Assembly: GCA_965223265.1 (NCBI GenBank)
Contig: OZ244999.1
Coordinates: 928,001 to 992,000, forward strand
Source: Planctomycetota bacterium
GTDB taxonomy: Bacteria > Planctomycetota > UBA8108 > SXIK01
Length of the DNA: 64,000 nt
Reading direction: 5' to 3'
In this document: piece by piece, positions 7,700 through 12,110 of the stretch
Layout of the letters: the number at the start of each line of letters is the position of its first letter
Position numbering within the stretch: position 1 is the stretch's first letter
Notes under the pieces: generated by a model
The model's input: the letters and a program-made list of their open reading frames with translations, nothing else
Told to the model about the DNA's origin: nothing
The model's database searches: none
Program-made: the position numbers and the translations under genes

Positions 7700-8986
7700 T
7701 CATTCACGACGATTCTTTTCCTCGGATCGATAAAGGTCAAGATCGCCATCTCCAGTCAGCAAACGAAAAACGTCTCGGATCTGTTCCCAGCCGAGACGCA
7801 GGAGGAAGTCATTACGTCTGCCGTAACTCTTGTGACCGAGGATGAAGAACCCGGGTTCAGGGTTCTTGAGCGACTCGGCGCCGTGACTCGATTGCGTCAA
7901 GCAGTCGCCGCCCACGCCTCCGCCCGTCTTCAGGAGACTAACCGCAAGCTGCATCGGTCCTTCCGAGGCGTAGCATTGGTGGACCTGGAGCTCGCGATAG
8001 AGATCGATGTTGGGGCGGAAACCGCAATGTACAAGGATGCGGTCGACCGTCTCCGACTCTCGGACGCTGCCGCCGTCTACCGGCCGAAAGAGGACCTTCA
8101 GCCGCCCGCCGACCCTCTCGACGCCGCGCACCGCGACCCCTGTCAGAAGGGTCGCCTGCGAAGCAGGTTCGGCCGCGATATGGTTGGCCGCTGCCGCGAG
8201 TGCGGCACGTGCCTCGAGAGGGTCGCCGGGATATCGCGGCAAAGGGTCGGGGCCGCTCGACTTGCGCGACCAGACGAACTGCGTGTCGGGAGCCTCTTCG
8301 CAAAGCTTGGCTAAGTCGACCACGGCAGTCGCAGCGCTGAAGCCGTCGCCGACAACGAGAGTGCGTCGACCGCGAAACGCGTCGCGTGCTGCGCCGAGAA
8401 CGTCGACGCACTGGTAGCTCACGGGCGACGAAGCCGAGCTGTCCTCGCCGCGTTGCTCGTAGAAAGCGCGCTCGCCGACCGCGAACACCCCACCGTCGCC
8501 CATGACGGCCGGCGTGCCGTAGACCCCGGAAGTGTCGAGGACGACATCGGCAGATGCCTCTGTTTCGCCGTCGGGTGTTTTCAGGAGCAGCCGAAATGGT
8601 GAGCTGGCGCGTCTCCTTCCGGCGATGTTCTGACCCTTCGTCAAGCCGAATTTGCCGATACCAGACACTTCCGTGCGATCGACGAACGCGTCGCCTAGAG
8701 ACTCGGTGAGTGGTTGGAGATACTGCTCGACGAGCTCCCGCCCAAGGGGATGAGCTGACGGATCCGGCAACGATCGACCGACCGATCGAAGACAGGCGAG
8801 ACCGAGCTGGGAGGCGTTCATGCGCCACGGAGTGAACAAGCGGACGAAGCCCCAGCTGCGGACGTGAGCGGCGCTGCCTTCACCGCGTTCGTAGACGACC
8901 ACAGGAAAGCCAAGTTGGCGCGCGTAGATTGCTGCCTCGATGCCGACCGGACCGCCACCGACGATTGCAATCCGTGGCTTCGTCAA
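7700..8986 (-). CDS. FAD/NAD(P)H-dependent oxidoreductase / flavin monooxygenase
   Basis: GGGPVG FAD motif, GDGFSA NAD(P) motif, C-terminal HQCYASEGP...DCL...PEPGFFILGHKSYGR..FLL..G.EQ. Confidence 0.85.
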   Translation of the reverse strand: MTKPRIAIVGGGPVGIEAAIYARQLGFPVVVYERGEGSAAHVRSWGFVRLFTPWRMNASQLGLACLRSVGRSLPDPSAHPLGRELVEQYLQPLTESLGDAFVDRTEVSGIGKFGLTKGQNIAGRRRASSPFRLLLKTPDGETEASADVVLDTSGVYGTPAVMGDGGVFAVGERAFYEQRGEDSSASSPVSYQCVDVLGAARDAFRGRRTLVVGDGFSAATAVVDLAKLCEEAPDTQFVWSRKSSGPDPLPRYPGDPLEARAALAAAANHIAAEPASQATLLTGVAVRGVERVGGRLKVLFRPVDGGSVRESETVDRILVHCGFRPNIDLYRELQVHQCYASEGPMQLAVSLLKTGGGVGGDCLTQSSHGAESLKNPEPGFFILGHKSYGRRNDFLLRLGWEQIRDVFRLLTGDGDLDLYRSEEKNRRE

Positions 8987-10629
8987 TTCTTTGTCCTCTT
9001 TGCTTGTCTCCCCGTTTGAGGGCCGTGTGCACGGTAGGCCGCGCCCGGTTCTCCGGGGTCAACGGCGGCTTCTAGCGCGCCTCTCTCATCCCAGCCGATG
9101 GCATAGACGCGACCGACAATACCAAACGACTTTTCATGATGATGCACTTTCCAGCCTCGCCGCCGCAGTGCCGCCACGACTCGCAGCGGAAAACGAGACT
9201 CGAGGAGTATCTCGTCGCTTCCGTATCCATCGAAGCGCGGCTGCACAACGGCTTCGGAGACGCTCATGCCAAAGTCGCGGACGTTGAGAATCGTCTGCAC
9301 CAGCGCCGCGGTGATCCTCGCCGCGCCGGGTGAGCCGAGGATCAGAAACGGACATCCATCGCGTCGTACAAGTGTCTGCGCGATTGCAGTCGATCGAGCT
9401 TTTCCGGGGGCGATCGAGTTGCTGCGTCCAGGTCGCGGATCAAACGCGCTCATGCAATTGTTGAACATGAACCCGCAGCCAGGGGTGAAGACACCCGAGC
9501 CGTATCCGAGCGAGTGGGAAAACGAAATCGCGTTGTCATCAGCATCGACGATCGTCAGCTGAGTCGTGTTCTTGGAGTCGGCGCCAGCCTCTGGTGGTTG
9601 GCCGCTTTGAAGACGCTGCAGGTACTCAGAACTCAGAAGAGTCGCGGCGTCCGCCGGCGTGAACCTCGGGTCACCGTGATGCGCCAGTCGATCGAACCAA
9701 ACTTTGCGCAGAGCCATCGAGACGTTTTCGATGTACTCGACGCTGTTATGGCCGAGACGGACAAGATCTTCGCCTTCGAGCAGCTTGAGAGCTTGCAATA
9801 GCGCGACACCACCGCCGGGGAGCGGCGTCGTCAAGATTTCGAGGCCGCGATAACATCCTGCGAGTGGCGCCTGGCTGTCGACGCGATACGACGCCAGGTC
9901 TTCCGCTGTGATCAGCGCGTCGTGTCGTTGCCAGTCGGCTGCGATTTCGTCAGCGATCTCGCCGCAATAGAAGCTCCTCGCGCCGCTTCGAGCGAGGCGG
10001 CGGTAGGTGGTCGCAAGGAGCGGTTGCTTGAACACTTCGCCGGCACTGTACGGCTCGCCGTCCGGGCGCAGTGACGCCTCTCGGCCGGCCGCCGTGAGTT
10101 CGAGTCGCCCACGAGTCGAGACACGCCCAAAAAGCCCGGGTCGAATCCAAAACTCTGCCAGCTGTGGGGTGACGACAAAGCCTTCCTCGGCATAATCAGC
10201 AGCATCGATCAGTAGGTCTTCCCATCGCAGCTTCCCGTAGCGCTCGTGAATTGCCGCGATCGTTGCCAGCATTCCTGGCACCGTGATCGACTTGTAGCCA
10301 ACGTCGTTCACCTTGCCACGCAGTACGTAGCCGAAGCCATCAGGCGCGGCCGACTCAAAAAACGACTGCCACTGATCTGCGCTGGCGCGACTGCCCGCGC
10401 GACCGTGACCATCGATGGACACGACTTCGCGACCGCGATCCCATGCAACCGTGGCACATGCGAAACCGCCGAGTCCACACCGATGCGGGTCCGCGACTCC
10501 TTGGACGAGGCTCGCTACGACCAGGGCGTCGGCGGCGTTTCCACCGCGGGCTAATGTTTCGCGGCCAGCAAATGCTGCTTCGCACTGCGGTGCGACCACC
10601 AGGCCGGCTCTCGAGTTGTGGCGTGACAT
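8983..10629 (-). CDS. ggt: Gamma-glutamyltransferase family protein
   Basis: GGNAADA, GLGG, VPG, NTTQ nucleophile Thr, LGSPGAARI, PRF; 4-nt overlap with the downstream flavoprotein gene. Confidence 0.9.
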   Translation of the reverse strand: MSRHNSRAGLVVAPQCEAAFAGRETLARGGNAADALVVASLVQGVADPHRCGLGGFACATVAWDRGREVVSIDGHGRAGSRASADQWQSFFESAAPDGFGYVLRGKVNDVGYKSITVPGMLATIAAIHERYGKLRWEDLLIDAADYAEEGFVVTPQLAEFWIRPGLFGRVSTRGRLELTAAGREASLRPDGEPYSAGEVFKQPLLATTYRRLARSGARSFYCGEIADEIAADWQRHDALITAEDLASYRVDSQAPLAGCYRGLEILTTPLPGGGVALLQALKLLEGEDLVRLGHNSVEYIENVSMALRKVWFDRLAHHGDPRFTPADAATLLSSEYLQRLQSGQPPEAGADSKNTTQLTIVDADDNAISFSHSLGYGSGVFTPGCGFMFNNCMSAFDPRPGRSNSIAPGKARSTAIAQTLVRRDGCPFLILGSPGAARITAALVQTILNVRDFGMSVSEAVVQPRFDGYGSDEILLESRFPLRVVAALRRRGWKVHHHEKSFGIVGRVYAIGWDERGALEAAVDPGEPGAAYRAHGPQTGRQAKRTKN

Positions 10630-10784
10630 GAAATGATTCTACCCCGATCTTCTCGACGGCTTCTACGACCACGTGGCGATTGCCTTTCGCACAGCGCGAG
10701 ATGATCCTTTTGCTCGATTTTCGTTACGCAGAAGCAAGAACATTTTTTCGATGTGCACCTACGGGGTTTTCTTGCTGCGGTGTC

Positions 10785-10812
10785 TTGACCCGAAGCGTCT
10801 TCCGCTTATAAT
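10785..10812 (+). promoter_or_regulatory. Sigma70-type promoter
   Basis: TTGACC-16 nt-TATAAT, near consensus, in an intergenic region. Confidence 0.7.
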
Positions 10813-10816
10813 CCGG

Positions 10817-11101
10817 CGCAGTCTCTCGAATAGCTGTGACGACGTTGGGGAGCCGAATCAATTGGCCCTGCTTGGATCTTCCGCTCGAGCGGATGCTAAG
10901 CGGGCGCTGAGACAAATCCGCGCCGAAGCAACCTACAGTGGCGGGACCGCCGAGGCGGCAGGGGATTTCGCGCCAGCGCACACGGTGCACGTCGGCCAAA
11001 GGATAGGGAAGAATCGCGGTCATGAAGGTGGGGGAGGTGCGCTCTGGTGGTTCGCACCTTTCCTGCCCATATGACTTTCCTCGACCATCAGTCGGACTGC
11101 G
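10817..11101 (+). ncRNA. Candidate structured ncRNA / long leader (~285 nt), family unknown
   Basis: Starts at the predicted TSS. Terminal stems CGCAGTCT/GGACTGCG and GTTGGGGAG/TTCCTCGAC enclose three stem-loops; G-U pairs favour the + strand. Confidence 0.5.
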
Positions 11102-11414
11102 AGTCGCAGGTCGTGCGTTTCTTTTCGTCTGCGTCCCGGTTGCTTCATCTTCGCCGGGCAGATACGATCTGGCGTCTGCGACGACGAGCGAGTTCGGCGC
11201 AAGACCGTAACCGCCTGTCTGAACCCTTCGCAGCGCCTCTCTGTTACGAGCTGCCCTGCACTCCGGCCGGTCTTTGTCCGGAGGAAGTCTCTTTCGGGCT
11301 GGTAGCCACGCCGGGTCTCGTCGCCGCTTGCAGCGCCGAGCCGTCGACGCGGCGATCGGCGACAATTCGTTCAGAGGGAGTCCCTTTCTACAAGGCGGGT
11401 GAGCGCGACTCGAC

Positions 11415-12110
11415 ATGGATCAGGTTCTACACTGGCTTGGCCGGTACCAGTACTTAGCCATGTTCGGGATCCTCGTTCTCTGCGGGCTCGGGCTACCCGT
11501 GCCCGAGGAAGTCACACTCATCGGCAGCGGCTTCGTCGTTCAGTGGCACAGCGATCCAGACCACGTTTGGGCGAGCTACATGCTGGCGACGCTCGCCTGC
11601 ACCGTCGGGATTCTGGTTGGCGACTCGATCATCTTTTTCATCGGACGCCGCTACGGACGTCAGTTCTTTGGCAACCGCATCGTTCGGTGGATGCTTCCTC
11701 GTCGCCGGCAAGCGCGAGTGCGCCGCGAGTTTTCGCGCCACGGGAAGAAAACAGTGTTTTTCGCTCGATTCGTCGCCGGCATCCGCATCGGAGTCTACGC
11801 GTATGCTGGACAGCACGGGATGCGCTGGCCGCAGTTTCTCTTCCTCGACTTCCTCGGGTGTTTGGTCAGCGTGCCAACCTCCATTTGGATCGGGAAGTTC
11901 GTTGCAGGCAAGGTTGCGGATCCAGCTGAAGCGCAAGAGTACGCCCAGAAGATCCTCCGCGAAGGCCACGCTTGGCTTTACTGGGCGCTTGGCCTGATGG
12001 CCCTCTTCGTCCTCTTTCACGTGCTCTGGGGGCGCTGGCGTGACCGTCGCAGCGACGAGAGGGAAGGCAGCCAGCGCGACGCTCAGGCGGCGTCAAAGCG
12101 CGCTACATAG
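11415..12110 (+). CDS. DedA family membrane protein
   Basis: GLPVPEE..LI.SG, GD...FFIGR.YG, FFARFVAGIR motifs. Confidence 0.92.
   Translation: MDQVLHWLGRYQYLAMFGILVLCGLGLPVPEEVTLIGSGFVVQWHSDPDHVWASYMLATLACTVGILVGDSIIFFIGRRYGRQFFGNRIVRWMLPRRRQARVRREFSRHGKKTVFFARFVAGIRIGVYAYAGQHGMRWPQFLFLDFLGCLVSVPTSIWIGKFVAGKVADPAEAQEYAQKILREGHAWLYWALGLMALFVLFHVLWGRWRDRRSDEREGSQRDAQAASKRAT

Follow-up and report, generated by a model that had tools for sequence, protein, structure and literature searches.

The divergent intergenic region between ggt and dedA of a planctomycete genome very probably harbors a selected RNA element. Its conserved unit would be a two-part module on the plus strand, in which a sigma-70-type promoter (P1) is followed, at a free distance, by a hairpin of approximately 60 nt. 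The module occurs in eight of eight lineages of one Planctomycetota family, once per genome. The promoter is close to consensus and conserved; the hairpin is conserved, shows covariation in its stem and is oriented in the direction of P1; and the element belongs to no known RNA family. These features are suggestive of the gene of a family-restricted regulatory RNA, whose stem drifts by compensatory change and whose apex remains invariant. A trans-acting or independent small-RNA mechanism is tentatively proposed for it.

Genomic context

The window, i.e., the whole stretch of DNA that was analyzed, comprises 64,000 nucleotides of contig OZ244999.1, and all coordinates given below are window positions. 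The genome itself (G000) is a single contig of 9.18 Mb. Promoter and hairpin are housed in a divergent intergenic region of 785 nt. On one side lies ggt, encoding gamma-glutamyltranspeptidase (8983–10629, minus strand; Pfam G_glu_transpept, E = 2.8e-104); on the other side, 3' of the hairpin and on the same strand, lies dedA, encoding a DedA/VTT-domain membrane protein (11415–12110, plus strand; Pfam VTT_dom, E = 7.3e-18). A -10-like box, TAGAAT (10636–10641, minus strand), was read directly 6 nt before the ATG of ggt. In the relatives the box at the ggt start is TATAAT, 8 nt from the ATG, and the block GATTATA(C/G) adjoining the ggt start is conserved. The spacer from the hairpin to the start of dedA (11077–11414, plus strand) is non-conserved, and the scans detected in it neither a canonical terminator nor a second sigma-70-like promoter.

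The eight lineages that could be compared consist of four reference genomes (G000, G001, G002 and G003, the loci of the last two being L004 and L005) and four metagenomic lineages: L113, L133, L115 (and L120, its near-copy) and L123 (taken as the same sequence as L132, which is nearly identical in the inspected stretch). The ggt gene is divergently upstream of the module in all eight.

Promoter P1

A near-consensus promoter had been proposed for this region in a preliminary description made from the sequence, and it is indeed present: P1 (TTGACC-16-TATAAT, 10785–10812, plus strand) agrees with the consensus at 11 of 12 positions. It is the sole such site within 10400–11700 (shuffle mean 0.3), and sites scoring at least 11/12 number just 36 in the 9.18-Mb genome, both strands counted. 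Six of the eight lineages keep P1 at 11/12 (TTGACC or TTGACG, 16 nt, TATAAT). The corresponding site in L123 is TTGCGT-16-TATAAT, and G001 offers only TTGACC-17-TAAAAC, which scores 9/12, misses the final T of the -10 box and is separated from the hairpin apex by 526 nt. Judging by its consensus match and its conservation, P1 has the properties of the own promoter of a stand-alone small RNA. Transcription in the window would probably start near 10819.

The conserved hairpin and its invariant apex

The long hairpin (11018–11076, plus strand) is composed of an outer stem (11018–11024 with 11070–11076), an inner 15-bp stem (11027–11041 with 11053–11067) and a loop (11042–11052) that reads CUCUGGUGGUU in the window. 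Folded as 11015–11085, it reaches -34 kcal/mol and a z-score of -3.77, and 0 of 200 shuffled sequences fold as well. The 3' hairpin of the preliminary description is in this way significant alone, and it is conserved in the relatives. The hairpins of the window, G002 and G003 all form long rods capped by the same loop, each more stable than its shuffles (z = -3.77, -2.74 and -2.80, respectively); across the lineages the stems are 20–30 bp long. The covariance model R1 scores the window hairpin at 65 bits.

The apex block (11038–11056, plus strand) follows the pattern UG-N-GC-N-(C)UGGUGGUUC-N-CA, which can also be written UG-N-GC-N-CUGGUGGUUC-N-CA. In alignment A7, which comprises the eight lineages without gaps and was built blind to structure, there are 16 invariant columns, all of them within this block. 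The stem below the apex varies in a manner expected of a paired RNA: 76.7% of the 120 cells of the 15-bp stem pair in A7, as opposed to 43–64% when the partners are slid; seven of the 15 pairs change on both sides, and the covariation score is reached by only 2 of 500 shuffles. Alignment A5, fitted to the model and biased in favor of the structure, gives 83.7% paired cells; in it, six of the 15 pairs show a two-sided change and the score is reached by 0 of 500 shuffles. The covariation statistics are modest because only eight lineages, related to each other, are available. The inner stem of the window hairpin includes four G-U pairs, which correspond to A-C mismatches on the opposite strand; such pairs work on the plus strand only, in agreement with the direction of P1. 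Taken from these comparisons, the hairpin stem appears to be selected as RNA, on the plus strand.

The same apex has a partial dyad symmetry (TG.GC ... C.CA), and the occurrence of the element once per genome, always in the same syntenic position, would also be consistent with a DNA-level element, such as an operator or another dyad-type protein site. Alternatively, the hairpin could lack a sequence-specific function and serve as an mRNA-stabilizing or RNase III stem, as long stems are a property of RNase III substrates and those observed here are similarly long. However, the G-U pairs of the stem function on one strand only, and the compensatory changes reach 15 bp or more beyond any plausible operator, both of which speak against a role at the DNA level. 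A role of the structure alone leaves unexplained the 16 invariant apex columns amid otherwise diverged intergenic positions. Either of these possibilities is considered quite unlikely.

The predicted capacity of the hairpin to terminate transcription differs between lineages. A U-tract stands directly 3' of the stem in L113 (U9) and L133 (U8), two close relatives forming one clade, where the arrangement is that of a canonical intrinsic terminator. The stem of L123 is followed by UUUUCC, a weak terminator feature, and the other five lineages, the window included, have no U-tract. The terminator scan called no terminator-like site at 11018–11130 of the window, where the sequence after the stem is CAUAUGACUUUCC. 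By direct reading, the hairpin qualifies as an intrinsic terminator in two to three of the eight lineages and does not qualify in the window.

By several lines of evidence, the region is non-coding. The open reading frames overlapping the region (10673–11074, plus strand, and 10724–11416, minus strand) have no Pfam match, and tblastx revealed no conservation beyond the hairpin. The interpretation of the hairpin as part of a small peptide was rejected because the frames of the loop differ between the window and L123.

Distribution among relatives

The sampled set consisted of 41 related genomes, 21 genomes of the order, 59 of the class and 151 forming an even sample of the phylum. As DNA similarity of the whole intergenic region gave a match in one of the 41 related genomes, the window's own (in single copy), relatives were approached through synteny. 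Orthologues of dedA are present in 28 of the 41 genomes (47–57% identity), and the divergent ggt/dedA order is kept in two genomes of the same family, G002 and G003. A three-way alignment of the intergenic regions contains two conserved islands, namely the promoter, with identical spacing, and the apex of the 3' hairpin; the rest is unalignable. The hairpin is the only significant blastn or tblastx similarity between the intergenic regions (e.g., the window with L115: 29 nt, 93%, E = 5e-7; with L133: 29 nt, 90%, E = 1.3e-4).

A search of the 21 genomes of the order with R1 recovered the element in G000, G002 and G003. Weak matches on contig C404 of G003 and in G009 and G007 (23.6–24.9 bits) were discarded, since the loop is missing or the stems are mismatched. 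Model R2, built from seven sequences, found the element in three of the 59 genomes of the class, all already known, and in one of the 151 genomes of the phylum sample, the window's own; both searches applied strict filters, which also missed G001.

In G001, the ggt orthologue is 61% identical, and a 13-bp hairpin is located approximately 830 nt away from it, on the divergent side. Its loop, CGUGGUGGUU, corresponds to a 1-nt deletion, and the hairpin has its own compensated lower stem; it scores 21.6 bits and is found with filters off only. A convergent glcF-like gene lies directly 3' of it, and no dedA was found in this genome with the query used. Both the degenerate P1 and the loop deletion of G001 might reflect decay once dedA had been lost. 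In L133, promoter, hairpin and U8 are all retained, with a different, signal-peptide-bearing open reading frame in place of dedA.

Exact-pattern scanning of 185,579 species genomes returned at least 84 stretches; among those listed, only L047 (G002) and L082 (G003) represent the element. Three acidobacterial look-alikes (L032, L102 and L074) were attributed to chance or coding: the match in L032, which was itself read, lies inside an acyl-CoA-dehydrogenase-like open reading frame (peptide WCALVVRTDP), and the other two were assigned by the flanks that they have in common with L032. A metagenome scan with the dedA protein produced at least 62 pattern matches, none of which was confirmed. The pattern scan of metagenomes yielded at least 26 stretches, with the element in seven of the listed loci (L113, L133, L115, L120, L123, L132 and L131). 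Fourteen of the metagenome stretches were inspected in their context; for L131 the R1 score, 63.3 bits as for L004, was the sole criterion. Eleven of the listed metagenome loci carry only the 19-nt core with no stem, and L114, L116/L137, L117, L122, L128, L135 and L136 were set aside as coding or unrelated contexts.

The variable stretch between promoter and hairpin

The 5' part of the predicted transcript (10819–11017, plus strand) is lineage-specific and not conserved. It cannot be aligned with L004, L005 or L115, and it has no blastn or tblastx match among the intergenic regions. The -10 box and the apex are separated by 53–67 nt in L004, L005, L113 and L133, 174 nt in L123, 214 nt in L115 and 225 nt in the window. 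The stretch from promoter to hairpin accordingly extends over approximately 55 to 225 nt, and it is unalignable even with L115, the closest relative found (dedA 65–69% identical).

This variation bears on the larger structure put forward in the preliminary description, i.e., a cruciform RNA of about 285 nt (10818 to approximately 11101), akin to SAM-I-class riboswitches or to the rods of 6S and Ms1 RNA, with a conformational switch at 11095–11112. The stems that it named do exist in the minimum-free-energy fold of 10817–11120, including the closing stem (10817–10824 with approximately 11094–11101), the 5' hairpin and the 3' hairpin. The 5' hairpin (10864–10908, folded as 10860–10908) is locally stable as well, with a z-score of -3.32 and 0 of 200 shuffles as good. 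However, the 304-nt fold as a whole reaches a z-score of only -1.45 (12 of 100 shuffles as good), and the central arm (10903–11016) is no better than chance (z = -0.23; 74 of 200 shuffles). The same applies to the region of the supposed alternative hairpin (11085–11130; z = +0.18; 116 of 200 shuffles), and the terminator scan called nothing at 11095–11125.

Conservation is equally unfavorable to the cruciform. In the relatives, L115 included, its 5' hairpin, central arm and closing stems are either missing or cannot be aligned, and the sequence of the switch is not conserved. Because the hairpin starts approximately 50 nt after the -10 box in G002 and G003, as opposed to approximately 215 nt in the window, the 5' hairpin and the central arm belong to a lineage-specific stretch. 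The RNA preceding the hairpin amounts to just 50 nt or so in four lineages. The cruciform is therefore largely refuted by the relatives as far as sequence comparison can tell, and it is regarded as extremely improbable as a functional unit; the conserved unit appears to be reduced to the promoter and the approximately 60-nt hairpin. What stands of the preliminary description is a non-coding RNA element that lies behind a promoter upstream of dedA and belongs to no known family, with a conserved promoter and a conserved, covarying 3' hairpin, and without the remainder of the fold.

Comparison with known RNA families

No Rfam model reached its gathering score anywhere in the window. Within 10550–11500, three matches appeared up to E = 10 (E = 0.98–6.6), each to a eukaryotic family and well short of its cut-off, and the seven related loci gave nothing at E ≤ 1. 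The proposed analogies with SAM-I P3 and with 6S or Ms1 RNA find no counterpart in these results: neither a SAM nor a 6S match was obtained in 10550–11500 or in the seven related loci, the SAM-I riboswitch model (RF00162) giving none in 10550–11500 at E ≤ 10 and the 6S model (RF00013) none in the window or the whole genome. The role of 6S RNA is in this sense formally unfilled in the genome. The missing 6S match says little, since RF00013 was positive in only 5 of 14 control genomes.

Both families resemble the element in being structured RNAs behind a strong promoter, and the window additionally contains one GCAACC/GGUGC word pair of the SAM-I type. The element differs from them in having no covariance-model match, no conserved central bubble and no four-way junction. 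The roughly 50 nt that precede the hairpin in the relatives are too short for a SAM-I or 6S architecture, and a 6S rod is far larger than the conserved part.

Two further resemblances concern the loop. The conserved box of T-box leaders (RF00230) presumably also contains GGUGGU, and an unpaired UGGU could pair with the ACCA 3' end of tRNA; moreover, the motif is carried on a terminator-type hairpin. In contrast to T-box leaders, the element has no Rfam match, no Stem I and no specifier, its motif is located at an apex rather than in an antiterminator bulge, and its neighbors are not amino-acid genes. The Chi octamer of Escherichia coli, which we take to be GCTGGTGG, occurs in six of the eight loops; the window and G001 break the octamer, the invariant core being UGGUGGUUC, and the coincidence was given no further weight. 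Neither the T-box nor the Chi resemblance agrees with the pattern of invariance.

The closest kinds of RNA would be loop-recognition small RNAs and factor-dependent leader hairpins, among which the element would constitute a new family. Hairpin 14 of staphylococcal RNAIII is, as we understand it, an example of loop-borne recognition in a trans-acting small RNA. With such RNAs the element has in common a strong promoter of its own, a predicted transcript of small size in the short forms, a covarying stem with a conserved loop, freedom of the rest of the RNA to vary and, in one clade, a conserved hairpin that is also the terminator. It differs in mostly lacking a U-tract, in having no Rfam relation and in being confined to one Planctomycetota family. 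Factor-dependent attenuators in 5' leaders include the PyrR, LicT and TRAP types. The succession of promoter, hairpin (a terminator in L113 and L133) and gene is common to these and to the element, and the short invariant RNA could be a binding site; no conserved antiterminator pairing was found in the element, however, and it is kept in L133 and G001, where the downstream gene is missing.

Candidate partners of the loop

With its loop invariant and its stem drifting, the hairpin would seem to be recognized through the sequence of the loop, either by a protein or by a second RNA. The hairpin loop would accordingly be the recognition element, acting as a base-pairing seed or as a protein-binding site. 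Complementary sequences were sought on several levels. Genome-wide, the 9-mer complementary to the loop occurs in 55 copies, compared with approximately 70 expected from base composition (a value calculated by hand), i.e., with no enrichment. The apex of L123 has a perfect 12-nt complement 37 nt ahead of the aligned dedA start, a match equalled in 0 of 300 shuffles; L004 has a weaker one, 21 nt ahead of the dedA start (p = 0.08). In the window, L005, L113, L115 and L133 the complementarity between apex and dedA leader is not significant (p = 0.14–0.95). As a general mechanism, pairing between the loop and the dedA leader, whether in a pseudoknot or over a long range, was thus dismissed, being significant in L123 only and marginal in L004.

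The loop 11-mer of the window recurs within ggt (9589–9599), and the mRNA of ggt is consequently complementary to it. The relatives show nothing of the kind, and targeting of the ggt mRNA was set aside as chance or a lineage-specific feature.

Leader of dedA or independent small RNA

A plausible, somewhat less probable alternative to the independent small RNA is that P1 serves as the promoter of dedA and that the hairpin acts in cis as a leader or attenuator: located in a long 5' UTR, it would control read-through, mRNA stability or translation, with a trans factor reading the apex. In six of the eight lineages, dedA lies 3' of the hairpin on the same strand, an arrangement that agrees with a leader and counts against the small-RNA reading. 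The distance from the apex to dedA, however, ranges from approximately 160 to 380 nt, with no conserved sequence in between. Nor was a conserved sensor found, as the sequence from the start to the hairpin (approximately 50 to 220 nt) is unalignable.

In the window, L005, L113 and L115, the sigma-70 scan accepts no site upstream of dedA other than P1, as would be expected if P1 drove dedA. Yet a second promoter-like element is located approximately 33–41 nt before the dedA ATG in L004, L005 and L123, composed of a TGG-containing -35 element, 17–18 nt and TAGCAT; the L004 copy passes the scan criteria. Because of this element, dedA need not depend on P1 in these three lineages.

Without a U-tract, read-through is expected in the window, and the U9 terminator of L113 between P1 and dedA corresponds to an attenuator layout. 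A search for downstream sequences that pair consistently with the apex found none, and inspection by eye showed no conserved antiterminator pairing that would compete with the hairpin. The apex-complementary stretch before dedA in L123, and its weaker equivalent in L004, would suit a leader, but four of the six lineages with dedA have none. Similarly, the weakened P1 and altered loop of G001, from which dedA is absent, would be consistent with a function tied to that gene, whereas L133 has the whole module without it. As the module is kept in the absence of dedA, intact in L133 and with an intact hairpin in G001, it appears to be independent of the gene. On balance, an independent small RNA is placed slightly ahead of the leader or attenuator, as a tentative preference.

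Proposed mechanism and significance

In the short forms (L004, L005, L113 and L133), the independent small RNA would be a transcript of approximately 100 nt, and in the L113/L133 clade the hairpin would double as its intrinsic terminator. A discrete 3' end cannot be named for most lineages, since a proper U-tract is found in only two of the eight. The RNA of the window would have gained approximately 165–200 nt at its 5' side, specific to the lineage, and its hairpin is not followed by a U-tract; therefore, transcription from P1 probably extends into dedA. The element could consequently be, in the window genome, both an RNA in its own right and a part of the dedA leader, so that the two interpretations are compatible there.

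DedA proteins have been linked to the recycling of lipid carriers, and we know of no RNA-level control of DedA-family genes. A more far-reaching and rather doubtful proposal is that the element represents an undescribed RNA class of a deep-branching Planctomycetota family, in which the invariant loop UGGUGGUUC is read by a dedicated partner (a protein or an RNA, e.g., the ACCA 3' end of tRNA). The RNA would then couple a signal to the expression of the DedA-family protein and possibly of targets in trans, behaving as a terminator, a leader or a free small RNA depending on the lineage.

As far as the parts of the sources displayed in a literature search on small RNAs of Planctomycetes go, no planctomycete small RNA is among the matches listed; for the loop 10-mer, those listed are only of primer type. 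With eight related lineages compared, the element is of moderate importance for now. It illustrates that a plausible large fold of a single sequence can shrink to a small conserved core once relatives are compared. For the family concerned, it provides a concrete candidate for a planctomycete small RNA with comparative support, whose parts can be mutated separately and which adjoins a gene of the DedA family.

Genomic setting and conservation of the hairpin

Throughout the 9.18-Mb genome of the window (G000), sites scoring at least 11/12 against the sigma-70 consensus number only 36, and a search with the Rfam 6S RNA model (RF00013), which found its control match in only 5 of 14 control genomes, returned no match. 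In another genome of the same family, G001, the locus (L139, 496-1500) consists of the hairpin followed by a convergent glcF-like gene, with no dedA between them. The 13-bp stem is intact there and the loop carries a 1-nt deletion; the counterpart of P1, the sigma-70-type promoter upstream of the hairpin in the window, is degenerate (TTGACC-17-TAAAAC).

In six of the eight lineages with the hairpin, the E. coli Chi octamer, GCTGGTGG, lies within the loop. This match is probably a coincidence, because the octamer is broken both in the window (loop 11042-11052, TCTGGTGG) and in G001 (CGTGGTGG).

Sequences matching or complementary to the hairpin apex

Within ggt, the plus strand of the window carries at 9589-9599 an 11-mer, CTCTGGTGGTT, identical to the hairpin loop 1.45 kb away, so that the ggt mRNA is complementary to the loop at this position. 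Only 14 copies of the 11-mer occur in the whole of G000, and it is absent from ggt in all relatives compared. In the metagenomic lineage L123, the 5' half of that lineage's own hairpin apex has a perfect 12-nt complement, CCACCAGCGCAC, at ~1590-1605, 37 nt upstream of the aligned dedA start (0 of 300 shuffles were as good); such a stretch before dedA is missing from most other lineages tested.

Promoter-like elements at dedA and ggt

A second promoter-like element is located just upstream of dedA in three genera, at 1423-1451 in locus L004 of the same-family genome G002 and ~33-41 nt before the dedA ATG in L005 and L123. It comprises a TGG-containing -35 element, a spacer of 17-18 nt, and TAGCAT. 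Directly 3' of the hairpin, L004 (~1271-1300) also contains two tandem copies of a 15-nt unit, ATGCACTGTGTCGAA.

At the start of ggt, the block GATTATA(C/G) is conserved on the plus strand in the relatives, namely L004, L005, and the metagenomic lineages L113, L123, and L133. Read on the minus strand (window 10627-10641), a -10-like box appears as TAGAAT in the window and as TATAAT in the relatives. In all six loci it is only 6-8 nt upstream of the ggt ATG, a position which suggests that the ggt mRNA is leaderless or nearly so.
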